From: Mobula hypostoma | Taxonomy: Eukaryota | DNA length: 64,000 nt | Direction: 5' to 3' | Assembly: GCF_963921235.1 (NCBI RefSeq) | Contig: NC_086097.1 | Span: 25,608,001 to 25,672,000, forward strand | Shown: piece by piece, positions 5,639 to 59,800 of the stretch | Layout: each line of letters starts with the position of its first letter | Position numbering within the stretch: position 1 is the stretch's first letter | Position numbers and translations under genes: made by a program | Notes under the pieces: model-generated | Databases searched by the model: none | What the model was told of the DNA's origin: nothing | The model's input: only the letters and a program-made list of their open reading frames with translations

Positions 5639-6467
5639 AAGATTTAATGGCATTTGCGCATTTCGGACTGCAGGTAAGAGGTTTCTTTAGTTTTTTTCAA
5701 AGCAGTTACCTGGTAGGATGCTCACACAAAATAAAGGACGTTGAACCCCTGACAAGATAGATATTCAATAAGCAACACAGACAAAATGCTGGAGTTCCTG
5801 ATGAAGGGTCTTGGCCAAAACATCAACCTTTTATTTCCCTCCACAGATACTGTCTAACTTGCTGAGTTAGACCAGAAGTCCATAAGATATAGGAACAGAA
5901 GTAGGCCACCTGGTCTGCTTCGCCATTCATCCAATTCTTCCAATCATCTCTACTCCCCTGCTTTCTCCTCATACCCCTTGATGCCTTTGCTAATCAAGAA
6001 CCTATCTGTCTCTGCCTTAAATACACCCATTGACTTGGCCTCCACAGCTGCTAGTGGTAACAAATTCCACAGATTTACCACCCTCTGACTAAAGTCATTT
6101 CTCGGCATCTCTGCTCTAAATGGATGTCCTTCAATCCTGAAGCCGTGCCCTCTTGTCCTAGACTCTCCTACCATGGGAAATAACTTTGCCATATCTAATC
6201 TATTCAAGCCTTTAAACATTCGAAATGTTTCAATGAGATGCCCCCCTCATTCTCCTGAACTCCAGGGAATACAGCCCAATAGTTGCCAGACGTTCCTCAT
6301 ACAGAATCAGAATCTGGTTTATTATCATCGGCAGGTGACGTGAAATTTGTTAACTTAGCGGCAGCAGTTCAATGCAATACATAATCTAGCATAGAAAAAT
6401 AATAATAAATAAAATAAATTAATAATAATAATCAATAAACTAGCAAATCAATTACATATATTGAATA

Positions 6468-7780
6468 TAAACACAAACAACAGGAATTCTGCAGATGCTG
6501 GAAATTCAAGCAACACACACTGACTCTCACAGCTATCTGGACTATTCCTCTTCTCACCCTGTCTCTTGCAAAAACGCCATTCCCTTCTCGCAATTCCTCC
6601 GTCTCCGCCACATCTGCTCTCAGGATGAGGCTTTTCATTCTTGGACGAGGGAGATGTCTTCCTTTTTTAAAGAAAGGGGCTTCCCTTCCTCCACTATCAA
6701 ATCTGCTCTTAAACGCATCTCCCCCATTTCACGTACATCTGCTCTCACTTCATCCTCCCACCACCCCACTAGGAATAGGGTTCCCCTGGTCCTCACCTAC
6801 CACCCCACCAGCCTCCGGGTCCAACATATTATTCTCCGTAACTTCCGCGACCTCCAACGGGATCCCACCACTAAGCACCTCTTTCCCTCCCCCCCCTGCA
6901 TTCCGCAGGGATCGCTCCCTACACAACTCCCTTGTCCATTCGTCCCCCCCATCCCTCCCCACTGATCTCCCTCCTGGCACTTATCCGTGTAAGCGGAACA
7001 AGTGCTACACATGCCCTTACACTTCCTCCCTTACCACCATTCAGGGCCCCAAACAGTCCTTCCAGGTGAGGCAACACTTCACCTGTGAGTCGGCTGGGGT
7101 GATATACTGCGTCCGGTGCTCCCGATGTGGCCTTTTATATATTGGTGAGACCCGATGCAGACTGGGGGACCGCTTTGCTAAACATCACGCTCTGTCCGCC
7201 AGAGAAAGCAGGACCTCCCAGTGGCCACACATTTTAATTCCACATCCCATTCCCATTCTGACATGTCTATCCACGGCCTCCTCTACTGTAAAGATGAAGC
7301 CACACTCAGGTTGGAGGAACAACACCTTATATTCCGTCTGGGTAGCCTCCAACCTGATGGCATGAACATCGACTTCTCTAACTTCCGCTAATGCCCCACC
7401 TCCCCCTCGTACCCCATCTGTTACTTATTTTTATACACACATTCTTTCTCTCACTCTCCTTTTTCTCCCTCTCTCCCTCTGAATATACCCCTTGCCCATC
7501 CTCTGGGTCCCGCCCCCCTTGTCTTTCTTCCCGGACCTCCTGTCCCATGATCCTCTCGTATCCCTTTTGCCTATCACCTGTCCAGCTCTTGGCTCCATCC
7601 CTCCCCCTCCAGTCTTCTCCTATCATTTTGGATCTCTCCCTCCCCCTCCAACTTTCAAATCCCTTACTCACTCTTCCTTCAGTTAGTCCTGACGAAGGGT
7701 CTCGGCCTGAAACGTCGACTGCACCTCTTCCTAGAGATGCTGCCTGGCCTGCTGCGTTCACCAGCAACTTTTATGTGTGC
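6468..7780 (+). mobile_element. Penelope-like element (Neptune type), 5'-truncated, with an inverted ~47-bp 3' terminus at its left end
   Basis: Frameshifted RT C-terminus, CKRNKCYTC motif and GIY-YIG (VIYCVRCSRCGLLYIGET). TSD TACATA(T/C)ATTGAATA at 6453-6467 and 7781-7795. Confidence 0.92.
7685..7720 (+). ncRNA. Minimal type I hammerhead ribozyme in the PLE pseudo-LTR
   Basis: AGTC-CTGACGA-AGG(GTCTCGG)CCT-GAAA-CG-TC^GACT. Core CUGANGA/GAAA/UH is intact, helix I is AGTC/GACT, and helix III is the palindrome ACGT. Predicted cleavage after C7716. Confidence 0.88.
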
Positions 7781-10700
7781 TACATACATTGAATAGATTT
7801 TTTTAATGTGCAAAAACAGACTGTATATTTTTTTAAAAAGTGAGGTAGTGTCCAAAGATTCAATGTCCATTTAGAAATCAGATGGCAGAGAGGAAGAAGC
7901 TTTTCCTGAATCGCTGAGTGTGTACCTTCACACTTCTGTACCTCCTACCTGATGGTTACAGTGAGAAAAGGACATGCCCTGGGTGCTGGAGGTCCTTAAT
8001 AAAGGACGTTGCCTTTCTGAGACTCTGCTCCCTAAAGATGTCCTGGCTACTTTGTAGGCTAGTGCCCAAGATGGGGCTGACTAGATTTACAACTTTCTGC
8101 AGCTTCCTTCGGTCCTGAGCAGTAGCCCCTCCATACCAGACAGTGATGCAGCCTGTCAGAATGCTCCCCATGGTACAACTATAGAAGTTTTTGAGTGTAT
8201 TTGTTGATAGGCCAAATCTCTTCAAACTCCTAATAAAGTATAGCCGCTGTCTTGCCTTCTTTATAACTACATCGATATGTTCAGACTAGGGATCTTGACA
8301 CCCAGGAACTTGAAACTGCTCACTCTCTCCACTTCTGATCCCTCTATGAGGATTGGTATGTGCTCCTTCGACTTACCCTTCCTAAAGTCCATAGTCAGCT
8401 CTTCCATCTTACTGACATTGAGTGCCAGGTTGTTGCTGCGGCACCACTCCACTAGTTGGCATATCTCACTCCTGTACACCCTCTCGTCACCACCTGAGAT
8501 TCTACCAACAATGTTGCATCATCAGCAAATTTATAGATGGTATTTGAGCTATGCCTAGCCACACAGTCATGTCTATATAGAGAGTAGAGCAGTGGGCTAA
8601 GCACACACCTGAGGTGCACCAGTGTTGATCGTCAGCGAGGAGGATATGTTATCACCAATCCGCACAGACTGTGGTCTTCCAATTAGGAAGTCAAGGATCC
8701 AATTGCAGAGGGAGGAACAGAGGCCCAGGTTCTGCAACTTCTCAGACAGGATTGTGGGAATGATGGTATTAAATGTTGAGCTATAGTTGACGAACAGCAT
8801 CCTGACAGAGGTGTTTGTGTTGTCCAGGTGGTCTAAAGCCATGTAGGGAGCTGTTGAGATTGAGTCTGCCGTTGACCTATTGTGGCAACAGGTAAATTGC
8901 ATTGGGTCCAGGTCCTTACTGAGGCAGGAGTTCAGTCTAGTCATGACCAACCTCTCAAAGCATTTCATCACTGTCGATGTGAGTGCTATCAGGCGATAGC
9001 CTTTAAGGCAGCCCACATTGTTCTTCTTAGGCACTGGTATAATTGTTGCCTTTTTGAAGCAAGTGGAAACTTCTGCCCATAGCAGTGAGAGGTTGAAAAT
9101 GTCCCTGAATACTCCCGCTAGTTGGTTGCCGTTCCCTTTCATTCCTGGAATCATTCTAATGAGTCTTCTCTGAACCCTCTCCAAAGTCAGTATATCCTTT
9201 CTATAATAAGGAGCCCAAAACTGCACACAATACTCCAAGTATGGTCTCACGAGTGCCTTATAGAGCCTCAACATCACATCTCTGCTTTTATATTCTACCT
9301 CTAGAAATGAATGCCAACATTGTATTTGCCTTCTGTACCACTGACTCAACCTGGAGGTTAACCTTTAAGGTATCCTGCACAAGGACTCCCAAGTCCCTTT
9401 GCATCTCTGCATTTTGAATTCTCTCCCCATCTAAATAATAGGCTGCCCGTTTATTTCTTCTACCAAAGTGCATTTCCAACATTGTATTTCATTTGCTACT
9501 TCCTTGCCTATTCCCCTAAACTATCCCAGTCTCTTTGCGTACTCTGTTTCCTCAACACTACCCGCTCCTCCACCCCCCTTTGTATCTGGCAAATTTAGCC
9601 ACAAATCCATTAATCCCATAGTCCAAATCATTGACATACATCGTAAAAAGCAGTGGTCCCAACACCGACCCCTGTGGAACTCCACTGGTAACTGGCAGCC
9701 AGCCAGCCAGAGTAGGATCCCTTTATTCCCACTCTCTATTTTATGCCGATCAGCCAATGCTCCACACATGCTAGTAACTCCCCTGTAATTCTATGGGATC
9801 TTATCTTGCTAAGCAGCCTCATGTGCGGCACCTTGTCAAAGGCCTTCTGAAAATCCAAGTACACCACATCTACTGCATCTCCTTTGTCTACCCTGCTTGT
9901 AATTTCCTCAAAAAATTGCAGTAGGTTAGTCAGGTCGGATTGTCTTTTCAGGAAACCACGCAGGCTTTGGCCTATCTTGTCACATGCCTCCAGGTACTCC
10001 ATAATCTCATCCCTAACAATTGATTCGAACAACTTACCAACCACTGATGTCAGGCTAACAGGTCTATAGTTTCCTTTCAGCTGCCTCCCATCCTTCTTAA
10101 ATAGCCGAGTAACATTTGCAATTTTCTAGTCATCTGGTACAATGTCAGAATCTATCGCCTCTTGAAAGATCATTGTTAATGATTCCACAATCTCTCCACC
10201 TACTTCCTTCAGAACCCGCGGGTGCATTCCATCAGGTCCAGGAGATTTATCCACCCTCAGACCAATAAGCTTCTTGATCACCTTCTCAGTAGTAATTTTC
10301 ACTGCACATACTTCACTTCCCTGACACTCTTGAATGTCCTGTATACTGCAGGTGTCTTCCATTGTGAAGACTGATGCAAAATCAGTTCCTCTGCCATCTC
10401 TGCGTCTGTCATACAATATCTCCAGCATCATTTTCTATTGGTCTTATATCTACCCTCTACTCCCTTTTACCCTTTAAATACTTAAAAAAGCTTTTAGTAT
10501 CTTCTTTGATATTAGTCACCAGCTTCCTTTCATAATTCATCTTTTCCTTCCTAATGACCTTCTTAGTTTTCTTCTGCAAGTTTTTAAAAGCTTCCCAATC
10601 CTCTATCTTCCCACTAGCTTTGGCTTCCTTGTATGCCTTCTCATTTGCTTTTACTTTGGCTCTGACTCACTTGTCAGCCACAGTAGTGTCCTTCTTCCAT

Positions 10701-15580: not shown

Positions 15581-16659
15581 CCAGTTCTTAGAAGAGCTGC
15601 TTAATATTAAGAAGGCTGTGTCTGCTTAATATTTTTAAAAGGAGATTAATAACTAAAGCATCAATTGAAGTATAATTGACTGTAGGGGAAGTTGCAATAT
15701 CATAAATTTTCAATGAGAGTTTGCCAAATTTGAAATGCAAGATGTTCAACATCCTTCAGTAGCATAATGCACTTCTAAGGGCAACCAAAAGATTTAACAA
15801 GACTACACAAAACTGCATCTGTGGGAGAAAAGTGATTGTCAACATTATGGTCATTTCATCACAGTCATCTCCTACATTACCTGAGGGGTCCATGGACCCC
15901 AGGTTGTGAATCCCTGCTCAAGTAGGTTGTTATTTGGTTAAAAAAATTAAACCGATTAACTTCCAAACATGATTCTGCAATAAATTTGTTTATTTTTTTC
16001 TTTTTAATTTTTTTCTTCTGTAGACCATCTGCGGGGCTGTTAGCATTCAAAATATCCAAAATGAGGTGTGACAAGTAACAATACTGCAATATTGCAAGTA
16101 ACAAAATTGCTGGAATCTAGGACGAAAAGATGCTGCAGGAATTTAGTGGGACTGATAACTTCCATAAAGGGAAATGGACAGTTGACATTTCAGGTCAAGA
16201 TCATTCATCCAGATTGATGAAGGATGTCGATCGCAAATATAGGCTGTCCATTTGCCTCCACAAATGCTGCCCAACCCACTGATTTCCTCCAACTTTGCTC
16301 CAGTCTCTTGTTTCCAAACAGCTGTAGGAACTTAGAGGGACAGGCAGCATTTGTAGAGGGTAAATAGAGAGTTTTAGAACTGAACACTATCCCCAAAGGT
16401 CAATTATTGATCTGCACCCACAAATGCCACCTGACATGCTAACTTCCTCAAACAGTTTTTTGGTTAAAAAAAAATTAAACTATTTAACTTCTAAACTTGG
16501 TTCTGCGAGAACTGTTCATTTTAATTCTTTCATTTTAATTTTCTTTCATTTTAATTCTTTTTCTTTCTCCTGTTTCTTCTCCGATTGTCTAACACTTTCC
16601 TCTGACTTCCTAGATTTCCACATTCGATACAAATCGTAAATAACATCTCCTCTTTGCTG

Positions 16660-18990: not shown

Positions 18991-18999
18991 AAATGTAAT

Positions 19000-20560
19000 T
19001 CAAAATGAAAGCACTACAGGTAAATGGCAAACAGTACAGTAAACAGTACTGTCCTAGTGATTAGACCTCAGGTGGCAGGGTATTCATTAGTTTCGAAGCC
19101 TGAGGGAAGAAGCTGTTACAGTCTGGCAGTCCTAGTCCTGATGCTTCTGTACCTCCTTCCTCATAGCAGTGGATCAAAAAGATTGTGGGATGGGTGGTGG
19201 GGATCCTCTACAATGTTTTTGACACTTTGTCTGCAACGGTCCTAGTAATTGGCACAAATGGGGGTGGGGAGGGGGACACCAGCGATCCTCTTGGTGGTTT
19301 TAACCATCCTCTGTAGGGTCTTACCGTCTGATGCCTTGTAGCTTCCGTATCACACAATGATGCAGCCAGACAAGATATTCTCAATGGTGCTTCTGTAGAA
19401 AGTTGCTGGAATAGGGCCATGGAGCCCTGCCTGCCTCAATCTCCTCAGAAAGCGTAGACGATACTGTGACTTCTTAACTACTGAGCAAGTGTTATAGGTT
19501 CAGGTTAGATCATCCATTATGTGCACACTAAGGAACTTATTGCTCTTCACTTTTTCCAAAGCACGGCCATTGCTGTTCAATGCAGAGTGATCAACATGTG
19601 TCGTCCTGAAGTCCACAACCATCGCTTTTGTCTTGGCCACATTGAGACTCGAGTTGTTGTTCTCACACCTCTTGACAAGCTTCTCAACTTCCTCCCTGTA
19701 TGCCGACTCATCATTGCTGCTGACGAGGTCCACCACTGTTGTATCATCAGCAAACTTGATGATGCGATTTGAGCTGAATCTGGCAGTGCAGTCGTGAGTC
19801 AGCAGCAGGAACTGCAGAGAGCTGAGCATATAGCCCCAGGGACCACCAGTGCTCAACATAAAGGCACCTGAGATGTTGCTGCCAACTCAGGCTGACTGGC
19901 GTCGTTAACTAAGAAGTCCAAGATCCATTTGCATAGAGGGTTGTTGAGTCTCAATGAGGAGAGTTTGCCCACCAGCCTCTGATCGTGTTAAATGCCAAGC
20001 TGAAGTCGATGAACAACATCCTGTTGTATGGGAAATCGTTTTCTAGGTGAGACAGGTCATACTGGATGGCCAAGGCTATGGTATCATCAGTGCACTGGTT
20101 TGAGTGATCAGCGAAATGGAAAGGGTCCAATGTAACTGGACTGTGGCATTTTATATGATCCATTACCAGCCGCTCAAAGCACTTCATGATTGTTGAAGTT
20201 AGTGCCACTGGGTAGTAATTGTTGCTCTCTTGGGCACCAGAATGATAGTGGCTGCCTTGAAGCCTGCAGGATCAGTAGACTGTTTCAAAAAGATGTTAAA
20301 TATGTCCATTAATATATCTGTTAGCTGATCCACACAGTCCCTCAGCACTCGGCCAGTATGTTATCCAGCCCCACAGCTTTGCTTAGGTTTATCTGGCTAG
20401 GATCCTCCTCACCTCAGCTGCAGCCAGAGAGGGTGCCTGTTCCTCGAGGGATAAGGGTCTTTCCTCAATATCACATTATAGGCTGAATGCCTTCTATGAT
20501 TTGGTTATTCAGTACATCAAATCATAGAAGGCATTCAGCCTATCAGAAAGAGAGGCATTG
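19000..20560 (-). mobile_element. Older Rex1/Babar-like LINE fragment
   Basis: ORF 19500..19859 has IIKFADDTTVV; ORF 19951..20208 has [14 protein letters not shown] and RMLFIDFS. Confidence 0.82.
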
Positions 20561-21597: not shown

Positions 21598-22869
21598 TGT
21601 GAGCATTATCTGCCACTGTAATATAGTAATGTCCAAACAAATGTGCAAAGCCAAATAACTTGTACAAGAAACAAAACACCCTCTGTAACTTTCATCACAG
21701 CACACGTTGCTTGAAGCAACATGTATGGAGGATACAATACACAGGATTGGAAAAAGCTGCAGAGGGTCATAAACTCAGCCAGTTCCATCATGGGCATAGT
21801 CTACCCAGCATCGAGGACATCTTCAAACGGCGAAGCCTCAAGAAAGTAACATCCATCATTAAAGATCCCCACCACCTAGGGCATGCCCTGTTCTTATTAC
21901 TACCATCAGGGAAGTAATATAGGATACTGAAGAAGTTCAAAGTAAATTTATTACTGAAGTACTTATATATCACTATATACTGACATCATCACTATATCTT
22001 GCGGGCATACTAGGGTGAAGAAGCTATTTAAGAACAACTTTCTCACTTCCCCCATCAGATTACTGATCAATGCATGGGCCCAAAAACATTCCCTCAACAT
22101 TTTGCTCTCGTTTTGCACAACTTATTTAATTTTTACATTTCTTATTATACTTACAGTATGTTTTATGCACTGGACTGGACTGGACTGCTGTTGCAAAACA
22201 ACACAGTGAGGGGGTCGGGGATTGTTATCGTGGCTGCTTTTTGCTGCAGGGAGCGGGGTTGTGCAAATATTGTTTTTTTTTCTTTTTGGTCTCGAGGGGT
22301 AGTTGACGTATTTTCTTTCATCAACACACATGGTCTTTCTGTATTTAATGCCTGTCTGGCGTGGACAAATATCCGAGCTGTATTGCACATGCACATTTTG
22401 ACAGTAACATTTGAATTTTATGACGTATGTCAGTGATAATAAACCTGATTCCAATTCTGAGATCTCGTGTAGAATTACATCAGTATATAATTAGTCCATT
22501 GTCATCTGTCAAAAGGTAGATAATATTTTCTTTTCAAATTAATAGTAATTAATGGAACTTCTTTCTGAAAATGACACTTCAAGTAGATAAAGTTGGGAAG
22601 AAGATGCAGCCTACATCATTCAGAGTCAGGAAGTTGTGTTACAGCTGTATAAAGATTTGATTACACAAGAGACTGCAGATGTTAGAATATGCAGCAACAA
22701 TTTGCTGGAGGAACTCAGTAGGTTGAGTAGCAGCTGTGGGAGGAAAGGAATTGTCAGTGAATTTAAGAGGAACTATCTATGTTTCGGGTACTGATGCAGG
22801 GTTTCAATGTGAAACTTCAACTGTTCCTTTTCCTCCAGAGATGCCACTCATCCCACTGAATTCCTCTAC

Positions 22870-25437: not shown

Positions 25438-25518
25438 CAGGAACTTCTCCTCTTGAGATTTTGAAAGTTTACTCTTCATCCCCTCCACTTCGTCAATCTT
25501 ATCACGTTTCTTTAACTC
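25438..25518 (-). CDS. CEP128: Preceding internal coding exon of the same gene, ELKKRDKIDEVEGMKSKLSKSQEEKFL
   Basis: On the minus strand, TTTTGCTATTTATTTTTAAAAG precedes an 81-nt open phase-0 exon followed by GTAAGT. It joins in frame to the 5066-5140 exon and resembles the recalled CEP128 segment immediately upstream (EALKKQEAKADEHEGAIKNKLRQTETEKNQ). Confidence 0.78.
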
Positions 25519-25875: not shown

Positions 25876-25912
25876 AGTCGACGTTTTCGGGCCAAGACCC
25901 TTCGTCAGGACT
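25876..25912 (-). ncRNA. Hammerhead ribozyme variant (one extra A after GAAA)
   Basis: Minus strand reads AGTCCTGACGAAGGGTCTTGGCCCGAAAACGTCGACT. Confidence 0.7.
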
Positions 25913-26827: not shown

Positions 26828-26863
26828 AGTCCTGACGAAGGTTCTCGGCCTGAAACGTCGACT
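26828..26863 (+). ncRNA. Minimal hammerhead ribozyme
   Basis: AGTCCTGACGAAGGTTCTCGGCCTGAAACGTCGACT with an intact core. Confidence 0.85.
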
Positions 26864-27574: not shown

Positions 27575-27879
27575 TGTACCCCTTGCCCATCCTCTGGGTT
27601 TTCCCCCCTCCCCCCTTTCCTTCTCCCTGGGCCTCCTGTCCCATGATCCTCTCATATCCCTTTTGCCAATCACCTGTCCAGCTCTTGGCTCCATCCCTCC
27701 CCCTCCTGTCTTCTCCTATCACTTCTGATCTCCCCCTCCCCCTCCCACTTTCAAATCTCTTACTAACTTTTCCTTCAGTTAGTCCTGACGAAGGGTCTCG
27801 GCCCGAAACGTCGACCGTACCTCTTCCTAGAGATGCTGCCTGGCCTGCTGCGTTCACCAGCAACTTTGATGTGTGTTGC
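27575..27879 (+). mobile_element. PLE pseudo-LTR-only insertion (no inversion) with hammerhead at 27781-27816
   Basis: Matches 7490-7780. TSD TTTATTAT(G/C)TAAGTA at 27560-27574 and 27880-27894. Confidence 0.88.
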
Positions 27880-29965: not shown

Positions 29966-32723
29966 GATCCAAGCATCTACCTGAGCTATAACATTTGCCC
30001 CTTTTTTCTCTGAGCCTTTATTATCCATGTACCTCTCCACTTTCTTCACAATATTACAACACCCCAATAAATTGCTCATTTGAACACGGAGAAAAAGCTT
30101 TAAAATGACCTGCAACACCACTCCAAGGTGAGGATGGCATGGTAGGACAGCAGTCAGCATAACACTTTACAATGCCAGCGAACTAGTTTCAATCCCCACA
30201 ACTGTCTATAAAATTGTACATTTTCCCCATGACTGTGTGGGTTTCCTCCGGATGCTCTGGTTTTCTCCCACACACCAAAGATGCATGTATTAGTAAATCG
30301 TGGGCATGTTGGTGCTGGAAGCATGGCAACATTTGCAAGCTGACCCCAGCACTTTCTCGGGCTGTGTTGGTCATTGACACACACAATGCAGTTAGCTGTA
30401 TGCTTCAGTATACATGTGACAACTAAGGCTAGTCTTTTCTCTCAGAGTTGTACAGCATAGAAACAGAGCCTTCAGCTCAACTCGTCCATGCTGTCTGGGC
30501 TAGTCCATTGGCCTACGTCATGTCGCAACTCCAAAACCAGGGGCTTTGGCCTGTGCAGAACACTAGCAGAAAACCACAAAGGATGGCTAGACTGGAGATA
30601 AAGAATATTACAGCACAGTATGGGCCCTTTAGCCCACAATGTTGTGCCGACCTCTTAACGACCTTCTAACCCTTTCCTGTTGCAAGAAGTATGAAATGTT
30701 GAGAACGGAGTATGAAGAAGCAAAGTAGTATGGATTCATTGGCTTCCCAGGACCCAAAATGCATCAGTGTGTGATTATAAACACAATAGATTATGCAGAA
30801 GCTGGAAAGTTTAAGCAACACACACAAAATGCTGAAGGTACTCAGCAAGTCGAGCAGCATCCATGCAGGGCATAAGCAGTTTAGATTTCGGGCCAATGAA
30901 GGCCACTCCTTAGATGCTGCCTGACTTGCTGAGTTCCTCCAGTATTTTGTGAGTGTTACTCAGTGGGTGATTGTATGTGCCCAGCACACAGTGATTAAAT
31001 AGTAAAAGTGAAGGACAACTCAAGACACCATTCACACACAAGCATGTTCGTTTTGAGATGCTGCGCATATCTGATGCCAGCACATACTTCCCTGTCCACC
31101 TCACTCTTCACAGCACTAAATCCATTCACTGCAAAATGTGATTTAACAATAAAAGACAGTTCCTATGTTTAAGGTATAATGGGTTTCAACTGCAGCTAAC
31201 ACACTTTCTGTCCAATGATCAATACTTAACTGCTAGGACCAGTAGTGTTACTGTTACTCTCCTGTCAGGTCAGAGGAGCTTAATATATAACACTGCAAAA
31301 AGATTTATTGACTCAAAGGTTGGCTTTATTACAATTTGACATTGCTTTAGTAACAAAGCTTGATATTTATAAAATTTAAACCGCAGCCTCAGCTCAAAGT
31401 TGAAAAGCTAGAAAGAAATTGTCAGATGTTTAGCTCAGGAACATTGGGTTTGATTGTGAGTGCCTTCACAATGTCACAACACTTATTAGTTCTCCATCTG
31501 AACACAAGGCAAAGACATAAAGTGACTGAAGGTGCCAAGCCCGGACAGTACAAGGACGGTGCGGGGATGGATAGCCTTGGAACTTCAATGATATGCTTCA
31601 TGTCAGCCATCCTGTGCATACCATCCAAAGAAAGGTGAATCAGTAAAACATCACCCTGCTGTTTGAAGCATTGTGTGATCACTGTACGGATGGCATCTAA
31701 ATTAAATGTTAGAAATTCACTGTATAAAATGCTGAAAGTAGATTTCACAGTACAATGTGTATTATAAATAAGATTTTTCTTTCCTACCCCAAGAAAGTAA
31801 CGCATTTTAATAGTGTCTGTTCTTTTGTGCAGCACCCAGCTGAAGGTGAGCAACAGACAGAAAATGAGAAACAAACATCCTCAATCCATATTTGGTCATT
31901 ATAAAGTGAGAAGGAACCCCCACTGACACTAGCTGCAAAGCAGCAAAGGTCTCTTATGAAGGCAAGGTGTGGAAAAAACAAGAGGAATTGGATTAAAGTT
32001 CCCTGAATACAGTGTAGTCAGGAAAGGAGAGTCATGTCAGCACTGAATAGGGGAATGTTCCAGTGCCAAAGAGAGGATATGCTGGAGCAATCAAAGGAAA
32101 GATATGCTTAAAGGGAAAAAAAAATCAGGGATGCAGTGATACCACTCCAAGTATTCAACAGGTACCAACTAGTGGAATGATGCTGAAGAACAAATTTACA
32201 GGGAATTACCAGTTGTGAAAATAATAGTGGATTTGAACTATCCAAACATTAGGTTGGGTTAGACCAATCAGCAAGGAAGTGGGTGGGATTGAGGGTCAGA
32301 AAGAGGAAGAGAGAGACATACAGAGAGAGGGAGAGAGATTCAAGATTGTTTAATGTCAGTTCCTGGACACAAGTGTAAAAACAACAAAATAATTGTTACC
32401 CTGGATCCAATGCAGCACAAAAAAAGAACACAATAATGATACTAAAAATAGAGGGCTATGCACTAGGGAAATTCTAGGCAGTTTCTAGAGTAGGTTACAT
32501 GGTTAGCGCAACATTGTGGGTCAAAGGGCCTGTATGTAATGTGCTGTAAATTTCTATGTTCTATGTTTAAAAAAATACACACAATATGAAGAATTAAAAA
32601 AGCTTACAATACCATCCAAAAGCTGTATGTATATATGTGCCTAAGACTTTGGCACTGTACTGTATATACATATATTGATCAGATTGACAACTGCAAATGC
32701 ACAATGGGAAGTCTTTAAAATGG

Positions 32724-32883
32724 AAACAACAGGAATACTGCAGATGCTGGAAATTCAAGCAACACACATCAAAGTTGCTGGTGAACGCAGCAGGCCAGGC
32801 AGCATCTGTAGGAAGAGGTGCAGTCGACATTTCAGGCCGAGACCCTTCGTCAGGTCTCGGCCTGAAACGTCGACTGCACCTCT
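32724..32883. mobile_element. Miniature fold-back PLE tail insertion (160 bp)
   Basis: The minus arm runs from the 3' terminus into the hammerhead, then a short plus arm follows. TSD TCTTTAAAATGG at 32712-32723 and 32884-32895. Confidence 0.88.
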
Positions 32884-33159
32884 TCTTTAAAATGGGATGT
32901 TTTAGCTAGTCTGGATGAGAGAGAAAGGTTAGGAAATTTAAACCAGGACTTCTTGGATCATCAAGAGAAAATTTAACCATGAAAAACTATCCATGCAACA
33001 AATGCCAGGTAAATAATTGGGAACAAGACTGATTACAGTAAGTTCAGAGAGAAACCGATATAAGTGAGGCAAGGAGAGCATGCGAAAGACAGGCAACAAA
33101 AGCAAAGGCCAAAAATGTGCCACAATACTTTAACACATAAAGGTCTGCATGAATAGAGG

Positions 33160-34206: not shown

Positions 34207-34362
34207 AAAAAGCAGAATTTGTTACATTTACAGAGTAAGTTCAGTGTGCAGATGGACAATAAGGTGTAAGGGCCATGAGCGGGTAAATTGAGTTCAAGGG
34301 TTAACATACAACATATGTTTATGGTACAAGATATCTGTTCAAGATCTTTTAACAATGAGATA

Positions 34363-34753: not shown

Positions 34754-34767
34754 TAGAAGCTAACACG

Positions 34768-35801: not shown

Positions 35802-36499
35802 TAACCTTCAGCCTGATAGTACAATTCTCAAGCTTTTCTATCTTCTGCCTGGAGAAAAGAGAATGACCATGATGAGAGGGGTCTTTGATTATGCCGGCTG
35901 CTTATCCTAGGCAGTAATAGGGGATTCGATTGTAAGGGGAATAGATAGGCATTTCTGCGGCCGCAAACGAGACTCCAGGAAGGTATGTTGCCTCCCTGGT
36001 GCAAGGGTCAAGGATGTCTCTGAGCGGCTGCAGAACATTCTGGAGTGGGAGGGTGAACAGCCAGTGGTCGTGGTGCACATAGGTACCAACGATATAGGTA
36101 AAAAACGGGATGAGGTCCTACAAGGCGAATTTAGGGAGTTAGGAGATAAGCTAAAAAGTAGGACCACAAAGGTAATAATCTCTGGATTACTACCAGTGCC
36201 ACGTGCTAGTCAAAGTAGAAATAGGAGGATATCTTAGATGAATATGTGGCTTGAAAAATGGTGCAAGGAGGAGGGATTCAAATTTCTGGGGCATTGGAAC
36301 CAGTTCTGGAGGAGGTGGGACCGGTACAAACAGGACGGTCTGCACCTGGGCTGGACTGGAACCAATGTCCTAGGGGGAGCATTTGCTACTGTTGTTCAGG
36401 AGGATTTAAACTAATGTGGCAGGGGGATGTGAACAAGTGCAGAGAGACAGAGGGGTGTGAAATGAGGGTAGAAGCAAAAAGTAGTAAGGTGAAAAGTAA

Positions 36500-36721
36500 G
36501 CAACACACATCAAAGTTGCTGGTGAACGCAGCAGGCCAAGCAGCATCTATAGGAAGAGGCGCAGTCGACGTTTCAGGCCGAGACCCTTCGTCCTGACGAA
36601 GGGTCTCGGCCTGAAACGTCGACTGCGCCTCTTCCTATAGATGCTGCTTGGCCTGCTGCGTTCACCAGCAACTTTGATGTGTGTTGCTTGAATTTCCAGC
36701 ATCTGCAGAATTCCTGTTGTT
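36500..36721. mobile_element. Miniature palindromic PLE insertion centred on a hammerhead
   Basis: Perfect ~93-bp inverted arms around ...CTTCGTC CT GACGAAG... plus the 3' terminus. TSD TAAGGTGAAAAGTAA at 36485-36499 and 36722-36736. Confidence 0.93.
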
Positions 36722-38672
36722 TAAGGTGAAAAGTAAAGTGGCTGGCCGGCAAATCCAGGGCAAAAATCAAAAAGGGCCACTTTTCAACATAATTGTATAA
36801 GGGCTAAGAGTGTTGCAAAAGCAAGCCTGAAGGCTTTGTGCGTCAATGTAAGGAGCAGTTGTAACAAGGTGGATTGAATGTGCAGATAGTTAGTAATAGA
36901 ACCATAGAACCATAGAAACTACAGCACAGAAACAGGCCCTTTGGCCCTTCTTGGCTGTGCCGAACCATTTTCTGCCTAGTCCCACTGACCTGCACACGGA
37001 CCACATCCCTCCATACACCTCCCATCCATGTATCTGTCCAATTTATTCTTAAATGTTAAAAAAGAACCCGCATTTACCACCTCGTCTGGCAGCTCATTCC
37101 ATACTCCCACCACTCTCTGTGTGAAGAAGCCCCCCCTAATGTTCCCTTTAAACTTTTCCCCCTTCACCCTTAACCCATGTCCTCTGGTTTTTTTCTCCCC
37201 TTGCCTCAGTGGAAGAAGCCTGCTTGCATTCACTCTATCTATACCCATCATAATTTTATATACCTCTATCAAATCTCCCCTCATTCTTCTACGCTCCAGG
37301 GAATAAAGTCCTAACCTATTCAACCTTTCTCTGTAACTGAGTTTCTCAAGTCCCGGCAACATCCTTGTAAACCTTCTCTGCACTCTTTCAACCTTATTTA
37401 TATCCTTCCTGTAATTTGGTGACCAAAACTGAACACAATACTCCAGATTCAGCCTCACCAATGCCTTATACAACCTCATCATAACATTCCAGCTCTTATA
37501 CTCAATACTACGATTAATAAAGGCCAATGTACCAAAAGCTCTCTTTACGACCCTATCTACCTGTGACGACACTTTTAGGGAATTTTGTATCTGTATTCCC
37601 AGATCTCTCTGTTCCACTGCACTCCTCAGTGCCTTACCATTAACCCTGTATGTTCTACGTTGGTTTGTCCTTCCAACGTGCAATACCTCACACTTGTCAG
37701 TATTAAACTCCATCTGCCATTTTTCAGCCCATTTTTCCAGATGGTCCAAGTCCCTCTGCAGGCTCTGAAAACCTTCCTCACTGTCTACTACACCTCCAAT
37801 CTTTGTATCATCAGCAAACTTGCTGATCCAATTTACCACATTATCATCCAGATCATTGATATAGATGACAAATAACAATGGACCCAGCACTGATCCCTGT
37901 GGCACACCACTAGTCACAGGCCTCCACTCAGAGAAGCAATTTTCTACCACCACTCTCTGGCTTCTTCCATCGAGCCAATGTCCAATCCAATTTACCACCT
38001 CTCCATGTATACCTAGCGACTGAATTTTCCTAACTAACCTCCCATGCGGGACCTTGTCAAAGGCCTTACTGAAGTCCATGTGGACAATCTCCACTGCCTT
38101 CCCTTCATCCACTTTCCTGGTAACCTCCTCGAAAAACTCCAACAGATTGGTCAAACATGACCTACCACGCACAAAACCATGTTGACTCTCCCTAATAAGC
38201 CCCTGTCTATCCAAATGCTTGTAGATTCTGTCTCTTAGTACTCTCTCCAATAACTTACCTACTACTGACGTTAAACTCACCGGCCTATAATTTCCCAGAT
38301 TACTTTTCGATCCTTTTTTAAACAACGGAACAACATGAGCCATTCTCCAATCCTCCGGCACTTCACCCGTAGACAGCGACATTTTAAATATTTCTGCCAG
38401 GGCCCCCGCAATTTCAACACTAGTCTCCTTCAAGGTCCGAGGGAACACCCTGTCAGGTCCCAGGGATTTATCCACTTTAATTTTCCTCAAGACAGCAAGC
38501 ACCTCCTCCTTTTCAATCCGTACAGTTGCCATGGTCTCACTACTTGATTCCCTCAATTCCATAGATTTCATCGCAAACAACAGGAATTCTGCAGATGCTG
38601 GAAATTCAAGCAACATACATCAAAGTTGCTGGTGAACGCAGCAGGCCAAGCAGCATCTATAGGAAGAGGCGC

Positions 38673-38708
38673 AGTCGACGTTTCAGGCCGAGACCCTTCG
38701 TCAGGACT
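38673..38708 (-). ncRNA. Minimal hammerhead ribozyme (inverted arm)
   Basis: Minus strand reads AGTCCTGACGAAGGGTCTCGGCCTGAAACGTCGACT. Confidence 0.88.
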
Positions 38709-39375: not shown

Positions 39376-39531
39376 GACCTATGTTCGTGATATCACCCCT
39401 TGTTCAATCCCTTCCGACCTATGTTCGTGATATCACCCCTTGTTCAATCCCTTCCGACCTATGTTCGTGACATACCTCGACACTGTTTTATCACCCCTTG
39501 TTCAATCCCTTCCGACCTATGTTCGTGACAC
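39376..39531 (+). repeat. Tandem 40-bp repeats at the PLE inversion junction
   Basis: Unit GACCTATGTTCGTGATATCACCCCTTGTTCAATCCCTTCC at 39376 and 39416, partial at 39456; the native copy is at about 39489-39531. Confidence 0.95.
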
Positions 39532-40954
39532 TTCTCACGCTCTTAAACTTTTCGATGATTTTAAGTTCCCTGGCCCCCACCGCTTTATTTTCACCATGGA
39601 TGTCCAGTCCTTATATACTTCCATCCCCCATCAGGAAGGTCTCAAAGCTCTACGCTTCTTTTTGGATTCCAGACCTAATCAGTTCCCCTCTACCACCACT
39701 CTGCTCCGTCTAGCGGAATTAGTCCTTACTCTTAATAATTTCTCCTTTTGCTCCTCCCATTTCCTCCAAACTAAAGGTGTAGCTATGGGCACCCGTATGG
39801 GTCCTAGCTATGCCTGCCTTTTTGTTGGGTTTGTGGAACAATCTATGTTCCGTGCCTATTCTGGTATCTGTCCCCCACTTTTCCTTCGCTACATCGACGA
39901 CTGCATTGGCGCTGCTTCCTGCACGCATGCAGAACTCGTTGACTTTATTAACTTTGCCTCCAACTTTCACCCTGCCCTCAAGTTTACCTGGTCCATTTCC
40001 GACACCTCCCTCCCCTTTCTAGATCTTTCTGTCTCTGTCTCTGGAGACAGCTTATCCACTGATGTCTACTATAAGCCTACTGACTCTCACAGCTATCTGG
40101 ACTATTCCTCTTCTCACCCTATCTCTTGCAAAAATGCCATCCCCTTCTCGCAATTCCTCCGTCTCCGCCGCATCTGCTCTCAGGATGAGGCTTTTCATTC
40201 TAGGACGAGGGAGATGTCTTCATTTTTTAAAGAAAGGGGCTACCCTTCCTCCACTATCAACTCTGCTCTTAAACGCATCTCCCCCATTTCACGTACATCT
40301 GCTCTCACTCCATCCTCCCACCACCCCACTAGGAATAGGGTTCCCCTGGTCCTCACCTACCACCCCACCAGCCTCCGGGTCCAACATATTATTCTCCGTA
40401 ACTTCCGCCACCTCCAACGGGATCCCACCACTAAGCACATCTTTCCCTCCCCCCCCTCTGCATTCCGCAGGGATCGCTCCCTACACAACTCCCTTGTCCA
40501 TTCGTCCCCCCCATCCCTCCCCACTGATCTCCCTCCTGGCACTTATCCGTGTAAGCGGAACAAGTGCTACACATGCCCTTACACTTCCTCCCTTACCACC
40601 ATTCAGGGCCCCAAACAGTCCTTCCAGGTGAGGCATCACTTCACCTGTGAGTCGACTGGGGTGATATACTGCGTCCGGTGCTCCCGATGTGGCCTTTTAT
40701 ATATTGGTGAGACCCGACGCAGACTGGGAGACCGCTTTGCTGAACATCTACGCTCTGTCCGCCAGAGAAAGCAGGATCTCCCAGTGGCCACACATTTTAA
40801 TTCCACATCCCATTCCCATTCTGACATGTCTATCCACGGCCTCCTCTACTGTAAAGATGAAGCCACACTCAGGTTGGAAGAACAACACCTTATATTCCGT
40901 CTGGGTAGCCTCCAACCTGATGGCATGAACATCGACTTCTCTAACTTCCGCTAA
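39440..40954 (+). CDS. PLE RT plus GIY-YIG endonuclease ORF (N-terminally truncated, otherwise uninterrupted)
   Basis: TMDVQSLYTSIPH, QTKGVAMGTRMGPSYA, RYIDD and LPFLD motifs; CKRNKCYTC linker (Cys motif typical of the Neptune group); VIYCVRCSRCGLLYIGET...RFAEH. The first ~10 residues come from junction repeats. Confidence 0.93.
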   Translation: MFNPFRPMFVTYLDTVLSPLVQSLPTYVRDTSHALKLFDDFKFPGPHRFIFTMDVQSLYTSIPHQEGLKALRFFLDSRPNQFPSTTTLLRLAELVLTLNNFSFCSSHFLQTKGVAMGTRMGPSYACLFVGFVEQSMFRAYSGICPPLFLRYIDDCIGAASCTHAELVDFINFASNFHPALKFTWSISDTSLPFLDLSVSVSGDSLSTDVYYKPTDSHSYLDYSSSHPISCKNAIPFSQFLRLRRICSQDEAFHSRTREMSSFFKERGYPSSTINSALKRISPISRTSALTPSSHHPTRNRVPLVLTYHPTSLRVQHIILRNFRHLQRDPTTKHIFPSPPSAFRRDRSLHNSLVHSSPPSLPTDLPPGTYPCKRNKCYTCPYTSSLTTIQGPKQSFQVRHHFTCESTGVIYCVRCSRCGLLYIGETRRRLGDRFAEHLRSVRQRKQDLPVATHFNSTSHSHSDMSIHGLLYCKDEATLRLEEQHLIFRLGSLQPDGMNIDFSNFR

Positions 40955-41247
40955 GGCCCCACCTCCCCCTCGTACCCCATCTGTTACTCATTTTTATGCA
41001 CACATTCTTTCTCTCACTCTCCTTTTTCTCCCTCTGTCCCTCTGAATATACCTCTTGCCCATCCTCTGGGTCACCCCCCCCCGTCTTTCTTCCCGGACCT
41101 CCTGTCCCATGATCCTCTCGTATCCCCTTTTGCCTATCACCTGTCCAGCTCTCGGCTCTATCCCTCCCCCTCCTGTCTTCTCCTATCATTTTGCATCTCC
41201 CCCTCCCCCTCCAGCTTTCAAATCCCTTACTCACTCTTCCTTCAGTT

Positions 41248-41283
41248 AGTCCTGACGAAGGGTCTCGGCCTGAAACGTCGACT
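41248..41283 (+). ncRNA. Minimal hammerhead ribozyme (sense arm)
   Basis: AGTCCTGACGAAGGGTCTCGGCCTGAAACGTCGACT. Confidence 0.88.
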
Positions 41284-51532: not shown

Positions 51533-53592
51533 TCATAGAAACATAGAAAATAGGTGCAGGAGTAGGCCATTCAACCCTTTGAGCCTGCACCGCCGTTCAG
51601 TATGATCATGGCTGATCATCCAACTCAGAACCCTGCACCAGCCTTCCCTCCATACCCCCAATCCCTTTTAGCCACAAGGGCCATATCTAACTCCCTCTTA
51701 AATATAGCCAGTGAACTGGCCTCAACTGTTTCCTGTGACAGAGAATTCCACAGATTCACCACTCTCTGTGTGAAGAAGTTTTTCCTAATCTCGGTCCTAA
51801 AAGGCTTCCCCTTTATCCTCAAACTGTGACCCCTCGTTCTGGACTACCTCAACATCGGGAACAATCTTCCTGCATCTAGCCTGTCCAATCCCTTTAGGAT
51901 TTTATACGTTTCAATCAGATCCCCCCTCAATCTTCTAAATTCCAGAGAGTATAAGCCTAGTTCATCCAGTCTTTCATCATATTAAAGTCCTGCCATCCCA
52001 GGAATCAATCTGGTGAACCTTCTTTGTACTCCCTCTATGGCAAAGATGTCTTTCCTCAGATTAGGGGACCAAAACTGCACACAATACTCCAGGTGTGGTC
52101 TCACCAAGGCCTTGTACAACTGCAGTAGTACCTCCCTGCTCCTGTACTCAAATCCTCTTGCTATAAATGCCAGCATACCATTCGCCTTTTTCACTACCTG
52201 CTGTACCTGCATGCCCACTTTCAATGACTGGTGTATAATGACACCCAGGTCTCGTTGCACCTCCCCTTTTCCTAATCGGCCACCATTCAGATAATAAACT
52301 GTTTTCCTGTTTTTGCCACCAAAGTGGATAACCTCACATTTATCCACATTAAATTGCATCTGCCATGAATTTGCCCACTCACTTAACCTATCCAAGTCAC
52401 CTTGCATCCTCTTAGCATCCTCCTCACAGCTAACACTGCCGCCCAGCTTCGTGTCATCCGCAAACTTGGAGATGCTGCATTTAATTCCCTCATCCAAGTC
52501 ATTAATATATATTGTAAACAACTGGGATCCCAGCACTGAGCCTTGCGGTATCCCACTAGTCACTGCCTGCCATTCTGAAAAGGTCCCGTTTATTCCCACT
52601 CTTTGCTTCCTGTCTGCCAACCAATTCTCTATCCACATTAATACCTTACCCCCAATACCGCGTGCTTTAAGTGTGCACACTAATCTCCTGTGTGGGACCT
52701 TGTCAAAAGCCTTTTGAAAATCCAAATATACCACATCCACTGGTTCTCCCCTATCCACTCTACCAGTTACATCCTCAAAAAATTCTATGAGATTCGTCAG
52801 ACATGATTTTCCTTTCACAAATCCATGCTGACTTTGTCCGATGATTTCACCACTTTCCAAATGTGCTGTTATCACATCTTTGATAACTGACTCTAGCAGT
52901 TTCCCCACCACCAATGTTAGGCGAACCGGTCTATAATTCCCTGGTTTCTCACTCCCTCCTTTTATAAAAAGTGGGGTTACATTAGCCACCTGCCAATCCT
53001 CAGGAACTAGTCCAGAACCTAAACAGTTTTGAAAAATTATCACTAATGCATCCACTATTTCTTGGGCTACTTCCTTAAGCACTCTGGGATGCAGACCATC
53101 TGGCCCTGGGGATTTATCTGCCTTCAATCCCTTCAATTTACCTAACACCACTTCCCTACTAACATGTATTTCCCTCAGTTCCTCCATCTCACTGGACCCT
53201 CTGTCCCCTACTATTTCTGGAAGATTATTTATGTCCTCCTTAGTGAAGACAGAACCAAAGTAATTATTCAGTTGGTCTGCCATGTCCTTGCTCCCCATAA
53301 TCAATTCACCTGTTTCCGTCTGTAGGGGACCTACATTTGTCTTAACCAATCTTTTTCTTTTCACATATCTGTAAAAGCTTTTACAGTCAGTTTTTATGTT
53401 CCCTGCCAGTTTTCTCTCATAATCTTTTTTCCCCTTCCTAATTAAGCCCTTTGTCCTCCTCTGCTGAACTCTGAATTTCTCCCAGTCCTCAGGTGAGCCA
53501 CTTTTTCTGGCTAATTTGTATGCTTCTTCTTTGGAATTGATACTATCCCTAATTTCCCTTGTCAGCCACGGGTGCACTACCTTCCTTGATTT
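51533..53592 (-). mobile_element. CR1 family B copy 2 (ORF2 3' two-thirds and tail)
   Basis: ORF 51982..53685 from VVHPWLT onward is highly similar to 43976-46026. Confidence 0.93.
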
Positions 53593-56080: not shown

Positions 56081-56701
56081 GAAAATCTATTTGGAGAGTA
56101 TCAAGCACAGCTCAAGTGATTGCACTACTGCTACAAGTCAAGATGTTCAAAGTAAAATCAAGATGTACAAATAGCAGCAGGAATTGTTCCAATCACTTTC
56201 CAATACATATGCTTGAGATTATTCATTACCATCACCATTGTTTAAATATGGATTTCTTCTCTGAAGGTCATCACTTTGTTGCTGTGGAGGTGTTAGTGAG
56301 TTCATAAGAACAATGCTGTCTGGAACTTAGCACCTGGTAGGGTCACCCATGGCTATAAGTTCAAGGGGAAGGTTCCAGAAAAAGAACAATCCAACCATGA
56401 TGTTAACAGTGGAGCTGGTGGACTATGATGTCACATCACAAAGGAAGTGAAGGTGGAGGAAAGCTACAACAGTGAACCCTGATCTCCATCTGTCAAAGGA
56501 CTGCAATGGCTGCCTGTGATAACCTGAAAATCTTCTCTCAGATTAAAAAAAATGTTAAACAAAGTCATACACGGGCATTCTCCATTCTCCATGAGGTGAA
56601 CAACACACTGGATTCAAGTGATTGCCTTACTACTAAATACAGTATGAATTTAAGTGTATTTATTAAATAATCTACTTGATCCAAAAATTATATCTTAATT
56701 T

Positions 56702-56800
56702 CAGTCCTGATGAAGGGTCTTAGCCTGAAATATTCACTGTTTACTCCTCTCTATAGATGCTGCCTGACCTGCTAAGTTCCTCCAGCATTTTGTCTTGTGT
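56702..56800 (+). mobile_element. Older PLE tail relic with a degenerate hammerhead
   Basis: CAGTCCTGATGAAGGGTCTTAGCCTGAAATATTCACTG followed by GATGCTGCCTGACCTGCT...TCCAGCATTTT. Confidence 0.75.
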
Positions 56801-59800
56801 AATCTAAAATCTTCCCTCTGTTTTAACCAGATTTTCTCCCAGTTTCTATATTTCCTATAGCAATATTTTTTCATATAATTTTTTTTTAAGTCTAAGAGAA
56901 GATTTCCAGGTTATCAGTCCTGATCTGGAAAACACAACAGTGACTGACTGCTCATTGTCATTTCATCTTAAGTGATTTAAGACAGCGTTCCCTTCATAAA
57001 TTGTGCTAACATCAATTCTCAAGTTCACACCATGCTGACACCACATGAGATTTTGATCTTTCATTGCATCTTGAATTCTTATTTCTGGTCTATCAGATCT
57101 TTGATTTCTCTTCTGTTTTGAAACAATGAGATTTAATGTAAAACATAGATTTTTATTATTCTATTTATAGAGGTCAGAGAGAGGAAGAAATCCCTATCAC
57201 ACATGCCAAAAGTTATTGATTACAACTGGGAGTAGCATAATCAGAAAGGTCAACTCCTCGAACAGCAAGTGAAGTATTACAATATTGTCTGCTAATTGGA
57301 GGCTAAGGCTTATTCAGGCTCTGTCTGCTAACCTTCAAGTACTTTGCCAAGTCAATAGTAAACAATCCCGACAGCTTGCACCATCCATTTCTATTGTACA
57401 TTGCTTGTAAGGGTAATGAGAAATCCTCTTTCCCTTCTCTGCACTTTATCCATTTATAAATCTGCTCAGTGACTACTCCAGGGAATATTAAACATCCATC
57501 TCCAATCCAATCTCCCACAGATTGTATACCACGATTACACAAATAAATGGTTTTGGTCTCACTCAACAACTGATCGGGATTATAGCTCCTCTGTGGTTAG
57601 TGACCTGACCAAACTATTTACTTTTTTATTTTATTCTTGCAGATTCTCTACTAGTTTCCCCTCCCTGCAGATACCACTCATAGTTCACATTCCAATTTAC
57701 TTATCACATGTACATTGAACATAAAGTGAAATGCACCCCTTACCTCTCTTCCTCTCTCCCAACCCCCCAGACACACACACACACAGTCCTCAACCCCTCA
57801 ACCCCAGGACAGGACTCCAGGCTTTGGCCATTGGACTATGACTTCCGGACTTCCAATCGACCTTCGATCTTTGGTTATCAACCACCAGAATAGCCAATTA
57901 GCCAATGATGGGACTCGCAGGTCAAAACTCCAAGAGTGCCTGGCCTTTTGAGCACAAAGCGGAGACCTTGACTCTGGATGCCCTTTGCTACCGGTCCAAG
58001 TCACTGGCCTTCAATCTGCAGAGCAGGGGTCTGACTCCATTCATACTCCATTGTTCCACAGATAGCAAGCACCATTCAGTATCTTGTTCGGGGGGCAAAT
58101 TTAGAAAGCCATACAGCATGGAAACAAGACATTTTGCCCAGCACGTCTATGCTAACCCAATGTTGCAGCACTTGGCCTAGACTCCAATGCCTAGGCAATT
58201 CAAGTGCTCAATTAAACATTTATGAATACTGTCAGTGACCCTGCCTACACCACTTTCTCGTTGGGCCTTAAGGGCCAGTTACCATGCTGTATCTCTAAAT
58301 AAAATATGAATGGGTACCTACTGATCAGTATGAAAGTGATGAGCTGAATGACCTGTTTTGAAGTTGCATAACCCTATTTTAATCAAGCCGTAGAACAGGC
58401 TCATTAGGTCGAATGATTTCTGCTGTTTCTGGCAAAGTTTGCACGAATAATTCCTCAGATATTTCTTTTAATCCATCCGCAGCATGAGAACATTACTGGC
58501 AAGGTCAGCATTTGTAGTCCATCCTTACTTAGCCGGAAACTGAGGGATAAGAATCAATCACAATGATGCTCTGGGGTCACTTACAGACCAGTCTAGGTAA
58601 AAATGATCAACTTGTTTCTGAAAGCCATTAGTGAAGCAGAAGGCTTTATATGACGACTGCTACTTTCATGGTTATTGTTAAGACTAGCTTATTTTTATTT
58701 CCAAACTTATTTAATTACTTAATTTTAAATTCCCCAGCTGCCATGGTTGGATTCAAACTCATGTTTCTGGCTCAGTGATCCGGAACTCTGGCTGCAAGTG
58801 CAATAGCTTAATAATACTATGTTCTTGTGTACGCACTAATCTGAATCAATGATAGAGTAGAGCACAGATTTCTTGTTTCAGAAATGAAACAAAAAGAAAC
58901 TAGAGTCCCTCAGCCGTTCATTAGGCTTAACATGAATTAGTAAAAGCTAGACATACGTACATTTTAAATGCATGGAGAATTTCTGCCTTCAAGTGATGAC
59001 ATTTGCACTCAATAGGTTCATTATGCCGATGGCATTTCAGTTGCTTGATGGAATGAAAATATATTTTTTATATATTAAAAAAAATTAACCTTTCTTCAGT
59101 TTACTAATTCAAAACCATGGGCAACCTACAACGATGTTTAAAAGTTTTATTTAAATGAGTTTATAAACTAGGATTGGGTGATATTATTTAGAAGGTCAAT
59201 CTCGATACAAGGGGATATACAGTCAATCCACGGATTATAGTGCAAACAAAAGCAAATTTCTGTAGGAACTTCTGCAGGTCCTCAGTCGGCATTTTGGGTT
59301 GAGATTGTTCATCTGGTCCAGAAACATTGACTGTCAATTTCCCTCCATAGATGCTGCCATACCCGAGGAGTTCCTCAAGCATTTTGTTTGTTGAGGCAGA
59401 GAGATAGTCAACATTTCAGATGCGAACATGCATCAGGAAAGAAATGACAATCATCCCTTGTGTCTCTACAGATGCTGCATGACTCACTGAGTTTTGCCAG
59501 CAGTTTGTTTTTTTTCCCCCCCCCCCCATTTATTTTTATTGAGATGCTCTTCTGGCCCAACAAACCCATGCCAGCCATGTGACTAATTAACTCACCAACC
59601 TGTAGTCTTTGGAGTGTGGGAGGAAACTGGAGCAACTGAAGAAAACCCACAAGGTCTTGAAGAGAACATAAAAATTCCTTACAGACAGCAGTGGAATTGA
59701 ACCCAGGTTGCTGGCACTGTAATAGCGTTATACTAACCCACCATACTGCCGTGCTGCTCCTCCAGAATCCAGCACCTACAGTCTCTGGTATCTCCACAAA

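Follow-up and report, generated by a model that had tools for sequence, protein, structure and literature searches.

Minimal hammerhead motifs of an abundant Penelope-like element within CEP128 of the devil ray Mobula hypostoma

Hammerhead motifs within CEP128

A stretch of 64,000 nucleotides from the devil ray Mobula hypostoma (contig NC_086097.1, positions 25,608,001 to 25,672,000; hereafter the window) was analysed for a 36-nt motif that resembles the hammerhead ribozyme (HHR) in its minimal, loop-less form (min-HHR) and lies in the pseudo-long terminal repeats (pLTRs) of a Penelope-like element (PLE). The whole window falls within the gene CEP128 on the minus strand. A devil-ray (Mobula) CEP128 protein shows 100% identity to an exon located 145 kb downstream, and its exons are on the minus strand and extend from window coordinate +138,377 to -243,079 or beyond. 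Two coding exons are located in the window, one of 27 aa at 25438..25518 (minus strand), exactly covered by a 3,055-nt contig of run X1 (presumed RNA), and the next one of 25 aa at 5066..5140 (minus strand); the protein has both of them back to back. A preliminary description of this sequence had identified the host gene and its strand correctly, and also the distance of about 360 nt between one motif copy and an exon acceptor (cut at 25880, exon at 25518, 362 nt).

The motif reads AGTC CTGACGA ... GAAACGTC^GACT, the caret marking the predicted cut, and was found at the positions given in that description. It carries the type I hammerhead core (CUGANGA ... GAAA ... UH) together with helices I and II. 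Seven copies had been called intact or nearly intact. Intact copies are indeed present at 7685..7720 (plus strand, antisense to CEP128), at the 3' end of a solo, 5'-truncated PLE copy (6519-7790), at 41248..41283 (plus strand), about 290 nt past the stop of an open reading frame (ORF) in an insertion that ends at about 41344, and at 38673..38708 (minus strand). The last is the sole intact copy in CEP128 sense in the window and is located within a 777-nt arm (38601-39377) that is 97.7% complementary to 40586-41355. The copies at 26828..26863 (plus strand, one change in helix II or its loop) and 27781..27816 (plus strand, GACC breaking the outer helix I pair) are near-intact. The label did not hold for the copy at 25876..25912 (minus strand), which has an extra A in the core GAAA box (GAAAACGUC), nor for that at 36589 (plus strand), which is one arm of a perfect fold-back (36558-36629). 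The latter is part of an insertion at 36490..36722 (plus strand) that turns within the hammerhead, so that the plus arm begins CGTC at 36589 and the minus arm lacks C3/U4. Altogether the seven copies represent five insertion events, the inverted pairs having one common target-site duplication: 25876 and 26828 are the two arms of a single inverted insertion (25794-26940), and 38673 and 41248 likewise belong together. The copy at 27781 is a separate solo insertion (27574-27891), with unrelated DNA between it and 26828.

Among the copies described as decayed, those at 5795, 16212, 22787 and 56701 are real. They belong to an old decayed pLTR end (5795..5877, plus strand), two old decayed fold-back pLTR ends (16127..16460), an old decayed inverted pLTR pair (22681..22868) and an old pLTR end with an A6 core from which the palindrome is gone (56701..56806, plus strand). 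The copy at 59280, one of the old decayed pLTR ends at 59243..59510, has lost most of the core, and that at 32822 is part of a young rather than an old fold-back insertion (32740..32894, minus strand), of which the minus arm lacks the 5' strand of helix I and has GAAAUGUC. An old fold-back pLTR end without the core (30796..30963) had not been listed. An unaltered core was not found in the 25876 copy, with its extra A, in the arms at 32822 and 36597 or in the C6 subfamily described below. No hammerhead was matched in an Rfam search up to E 10, in which the microRNA hits correspond to the fold-back insertions. Sub-threshold microRNA matches were also obtained for short palindromic elements at 34358-34424 and 20475-20546, which are probably similar to miniature inverted-repeat transposable elements and unrelated to the PLE.

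Several copies of long interspersed nuclear elements (LINEs) are also present. Those at 35900-43070 and 1090-4470 are on the minus strand, 97-99% identical and of CR1 type by our own reading, and the copy at 35900-43070 hosts two nested PLE insertions (36490-36722 and 38571-41344). Large LINE pieces at 43970-46024 and 51534-53592 form an inverted pair (1,211 nt at 94% and 698 nt at 95%).

The Penelope-like element and its abundance

The location of the motif in PLE pLTRs, as previously proposed, is supported by same-strand hammerheads that flank an ORF with reverse transcriptase (RT) and GIY-YIG domains. In the window this ORF is 5'-truncated (39431..40954, plus strand), and its first approximately 39 nt are a local duplication. 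The full unit of about 3.5 kb consists of hammerhead, tail, ORF of about 1,040 aa, 3' untranslated region (UTR) and hammerhead. A search with a 5' ORF piece yielded 30 loci, and 14 of them possess a hammerhead on the same strand about 430 nt upstream; of these 14, picked for that 5' hammerhead, 12 had a second same-strand hammerhead 3,462-3,745 nt downstream. In one locus (L096) a frame of 1,043 codons is open. The RT and GIY-YIG Pfam matches, also those of the window ORF, are below cut-offs, and 1,204 homologues carry PF00078 and PF01541. The single ORF with RT and C-terminal GIY-YIG endonuclease (EN), the partial tandems forming pLTRs, the inverted 5'-truncated copies and the optional tail all agree with EN-containing PLEs. 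Between RT and EN a CX4CX2C linker is present (CKRNKCYTC at residue 910), of the form CX2-5CxxC that marks Neptune and Nematis PLEs (PMC8557442), and by this sequence feature the element is likely of Neptune type. The 1,204 homologue matches included no named PLE reference proteins. A figure of 137 matches was rejected as copy number of the long elements, as a piece further 5' gave 1,446, and a common break at 39470 was an artefact of the local duplication in the query.

The exact 34-mer was found 36,060 times in the 3.48-Gb genome and its reversed control not once, so the motif is not a chance occurrence; with CpG-type degeneracy allowed the number rises to 61,635. These counts bear out the very large copy number predicted in the preliminary description. 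The window holds 4 exact copies against 0.66 expected, while the surrounding 864 kb holds 10 against 9.0 expected; the window is a local cluster inside an average region. A profile search for pLTR ends of all ages gave 26 in the window and 249 in the 864 kb, which by rough extrapolation would amount to about a million genome-wide, provided that the 864-kb region is typical. At G000:C2:12242895-12243219 three same-strand motif copies follow each other at 145-nt spacing, a small tandem array that could fold as dimers.

By sequence and position the ray motif is of an already known min-HHR type in a new host, in agreement with the class proposed earlier. Cervera and De la Pena (2014) defined loop-less min-HHRs in pLTRs of Xena, Poseidon and Neptune elements, scattered by thousands in vertebrate genomes and cleaving at a low level and only as dimers (PMC4209133). 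The ray motif shares with these metazoan PLE ribozymes the absence of loop 3, the palindromic 15.2-16.2, a helix I of 4-5 bp, a probable unpaired base between 9 and 10.1, the presence in both pLTRs, the thousands of solo copies and the proposed dimer. It differs in its short helix II (4 bp), in the commonest young form having U at 11.1 (a G-U pair) rather than C, and in copy number, at least 61,635 compared to about 9,000 in Xenopus, the highest number in the consulted part of that paper. Two of its supplementary files contain no shark or ray term. The small hammerheads of Lunse, Weinberg and Breaker (via PMC6765202) are similar to the ray motif in having a diminished helix III, in being associated with PLEs and in cleaving as dimers, which for the ray motif is a prediction. 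With the Poseidon element PAc of Anolis carolinensis (Frangieh et al. 2024, PMC11167929) the ray element has in common the HHR at the pLTR-ORF junction, the two insertion end points in a tail inside the 5' end of the ORF, and the lack of ends at the cut. In the ray, the likely start codon comes after the cut and the ORF encodes a CX4CX2C linker as in Neptune/Nematis; assistance by the protein was shown for PAc and is only predicted for the ray element. Non-LTR retrozymes (Li et al. 2026, 10.64898/2026.07.22.740005) also originate from PLE pLTRs, with a mean unit of 363 bp in the one chondrichthyan of that study, and the ray has short deleted units of about 260-510 nt. However, the tandem repeats with one hammerhead per unit that define retrozymes were not found in the window, where the copies are solo, inverted or fold-back. 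No paper on the ray family or on a C6 PLE lineage was found in the literature, although the Lunse paper and the supplements of Li et al. may cover them.

Conservation, insertion ends and folding of the motif

A tree of 53 of the 78 copies (all non-young and 30 random young ones) showed three age tiers: an old one with A6 (end branches 0.25-0.4), a middle one with mostly CUGCCGA (0.07-0.16) and a young one with A6 (mostly <0.1). The majority sequences of young (55) and middle (14) copies are identical in 33/36 columns of the motif, 163/324 of the 3' UTR, 57/78 of the post-cut stretch and 197/216 of the ORF end (Fisher p=6e-7 for motif versus 3' UTR and 0.03 for motif versus post-cut stretch). 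The excess of conservation over the flanks between subfamilies, on which the preliminary description had staked its reading, is present, without covariation. Coding constraint on the motif was rejected, as the ORF frame stops just after it (by eye). One of the three differences is the catalytic A6 (A6C), and this being the sole differing core base weakens the idea that cleavage is the conserved trait. In the middle tier an ATG about 22 nt past the cut seems to be in frame with the ORF (L395; by eye), and in the young tier an extra base shifts it out of frame, leaving a short upstream frame (by eye).

A pattern enriched for the middle tier gave 7,173 matches; the first 100 listed had C in 61, A in 36, T in 2 and G in 1, from which roughly at least 4,400 C6 copies can be estimated. 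A stricter C6 pattern had 736 matches, and of 30 loci 21 belonged to the middle tier and 9 were young point mutants. Copies with C6 include 5' pLTRs that continue into the ORF start and one (L395) that spans the entire ORF. The C6 tier may be part of the trunk, with reversion in the young tier, or a side branch; A6 copies of the same age as the C6 tier exist. In another hammerhead A6C lowers the rate to 3.55e-6 per min in 0.3 mM Mg2+, compared to 0.3 for the native form, and reaches 0.18 in Mn2+ (PMC7151607). The natural A6C hammerhead of phage Bcep176 (PMC7151607) shares the CUGCYGA core with the middle tier; it is a single monomeric ribozyme with measured Mn2+ preference, whereas C6 in the ray marks a retrotransposon lineage with a putative ribozyme. 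We infer that full cleavage was probably not needed for the burst of the C6 subfamily. Among the 30 middle-tier ORF-start loci (L365-L394), 18 have internal deletions that leave only short units of about 260-510 nt, and in about ten of these the deletion junction is at the beginning of the hammerhead. Such units look like precursors of non-LTR retrozymes; those that keep both motifs have two same-strand hammerheads at a short distance.

In all 30 exact-motif loci the insertion ended in the tail, either about 65 or about 110 nt beyond the predicted cut, in line with the anole PLE, which has a tail and two sites of internal priming (PMC11167929). Half of these loci (15/30) were truncated within 60 nt upstream of the motif and the other 15 extend more than 60 nt upstream; as insertions end past the motif, even truncated copies carry the hammerhead passively. 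A further 2,299 copies keep the tail and lack the GAA box. The first 100 of these listed gave 91 distinct junctions (30 loci and 60 of 70 others), with ten left out, several of them apparent indels. The junctions comprise 57 inversion joins, 13 same-strand rearrangements and 21 clean 5' ends. The 21 clean ends show no peak between -5 and +8 relative to the cut, each position having 1-3 of them, which indicates that the templates were uncut. A pile-up at the cut site was rejected: 12 of the 91 breakpoints are at +1, but 10 of them are inversion joins, several via helix I complementarity.

The first base of the motif, the A of AGTC, behaves differently. Copies starting there number 1,474, compared to 582 at +3 and 177 at -10, counts for which slightly different three-mismatch patterns were used. 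Inspection of 30 copies with a +1 start showed 20 inversion joins, 9 clean joins, in most of which a target-site duplication is visible near the first base, and 1 deletion; among 85 incidental copies, 12 started at +1 or +2. An RNA start at the first base of the motif is the simplest reading of this pile-up, and microhomology or polymerase pausing are also possible. A pyrimidine tract and AG directly precede helix I (window 7660-7690, in all tiers), similar to Drosophila Penelope, in which an intron end has been mapped to helix I. As a splice acceptor this stretch was rejected, since the A has more starts (1,474) than the T that follows AG (582) and a donor site was not found.

Helix III had been described correctly as A15.1-U16.1 around CG with a palindromic ACGU. 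Without loop 3 the palindromic 15.1-16.1 permits a shared helix III, ACGU is present in all three age tiers, and the predicted dimer structure nests without conflict. For helix II, the AGG/CCT register proposed earlier is less likely than GGGU/GCCY after an unpaired A. The unpaired base between 9 and 10.1 followed by G10.1-C11.1 is present in CCC forms, while the commonest young form has G-U there. The stems are invariant between the tier majorities, an invariance that is silent on pairing, and no stem pair covaries. The best predicted monomer fold (-11.5 kcal/mol) is an inactive rod, formed by pairing of GACG of the core to CGUC. For the active dimer the prediction is -11.9 in the earlier helix II register and at -12.5 in the 4-bp register, compared to -23.0 for two monomers and -31.3 kcal/mol for the best inactive dimer, so that it would be about 10 kcal/mol less stable than two inactive rods. 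For the C6 form the inactive rod is not predicted and the dimer scores -21.9. The energies of the A6 form agree with the low dimer activity of min-HHRs (PMC4209133) and with the protein dependence of the anole HHR (PMC11167929).

Role of the hammerhead in the element and the host intron

Taken together, we consider it likely, with a probability of about 0.8, that the motifs are minimal loop-less type I hammerheads in the pLTR of an abundant PLE, likely of Neptune type, and that the copies in the CEP128 introns are dead passengers which rarely or never cut host RNA. Reverse transcription would begin in the tail, pass the uncut hammerhead and usually stop or turn early. Because copying would start behind the hammerhead, nearly every insertion, however short, would carry the motif, and its copy number would therefore need no selection for a host function. 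As a monomer, the hammerhead of the element is predicted to form an inactive rod, and it would cut only slowly, as a dimer, probably helped by the protein of the element. In the anole PLE unprocessed RNA is the main substrate and the HHR requires the protein (PMC11167929). Several points weigh against this interpretation. The motif is as conserved as coding sequence (33/36 and 197/216 columns) and both the oldest and youngest tiers are A6, so something selects it. Of the 14 full-length loci, 13 continue beyond the 5' hammerhead on its upstream side, an extension that cutting and ligation to a circle would account for. The clade call is based on the linker motif, which Nematis shares, and nearest-neighbour energies leave out tertiary contacts and proteins.

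Cleavage of the CEP128 intron by sense-strand copies paired via ACGU, as suggested in the preliminary description, is very improbable. The position of the window inside the gene would allow it, and with loose pairing of insertion ends solo copies appeared depleted in sense (6 versus 23 antisense, p=0.002), with intact copies over 381 kb also skewed (2 versus 8, too few to judge). However, the antisense bias was rejected once pairing was made strict and element-aware over the 381 kb (22 versus 35, p=0.11; all copies 47 versus 60); the neighbouring stretch up to a seven-transmembrane (7TM) exon gave 8 versus 10, and LINE controls showed no antisense excess. The sole intact sense copy, at 38673, is predicted to be held in a 70-bp duplex with its own inverted arm (-148 kcal/mol), the near-acceptor copy at 25876 has the core insertion, and the other two sense copies are halves of fold-backs. 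Intron cutting is thus unsupported, and one gene is compatible with a weak genome-wide effect. The 7TM exon (L346:1175-2596, plus strand, Pfam 7tm_1 match) belongs to a large receptor upstream of CEP128, which we take to be TSHR from its synteny.

With regard to the element itself, the question is whether cleavage is needed for spread. In the model of Cervera and De la Pena, both hammerheads of a full-length unit pair and, assisted by protein, cleave to free a 3.5-kb RNA, which is circularised by ligation and copied more than once round. The direct-repeat hammerheads 3.5 kb apart, the more-than-unit copies in 13/14 loci, the core retained in the oldest and youngest tiers and the low dimer activity of other min-HHRs (PMC4209133) would fit, but read-through or tandem transcripts likewise yield more-than-unit copies, and the C6 tier made partial tandems and full-ORF copies despite the drop in rate caused by A6C elsewhere (PMC7151607). 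HHR mutants also left insertion by the anole PLE in vitro unchanged (PMC11167929), and Naiads thrive without HHRs (PMC8557442), which together make a requirement for cleavage rather unlikely. Slightly better placed, yet still doubtful, is the explanation that the 36 bases are kept mainly as an RNA start signal, an internal core promoter or a protein-binding fold, with hammerhead chemistry secondary. The initiator consensus is YYANWYY, and the motif start fits it in all tiers. The ACGT at +28 to +31 resembles the RGACGTGY element of Drosophila Penelope (PMC2377424). Conservation of the loop equals that of the core, no stem pair covaries, and the pile-up at the first base of helix I includes 9/30 clean joins. 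Against this, 20/30 of those copies are inversion joins and helix I microhomology can shift breakpoints, the three start counts rest on differing patterns, most full-length copies extend past +1, and the hammerhead of Drosophila Penelope follows an intron instead of standing at the start (PMC4209133, PMC2377424). The C6 tier suggests that cutting may be unneeded for spread in at least one subfamily. Only tentatively, and with the same reservation as for the start signal, can this be extended to hammerhead chemistry being dispensable in the ray lineage: a full-ORF subfamily would have spread with a crippled or manganese-switched A6C, and the other bases would be fixed because, with an initiator at helix I and ACGT at +28 to +31, they also mark an internal start for short transcripts that seed mini-insertions.

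The ray family is notable chiefly for its abundance, with at least 61,635 near-exact copies. The function of PLE hammerheads has been called unclear, and it has been asked whether they simply parasitize PLEs (PMC8557442). Host-intron cutting would matter if true. The ray offers two handles on the role of the hammerhead, a successful subfamily with a changed core and a pile-up of insertion ends at the first base and not at the cut, and both make this role directly testable with natural sequences. If dispensability is true, A6 and C6 would provide a natural test of whether the hammerheads are of use to PLEs or only ride along with them.

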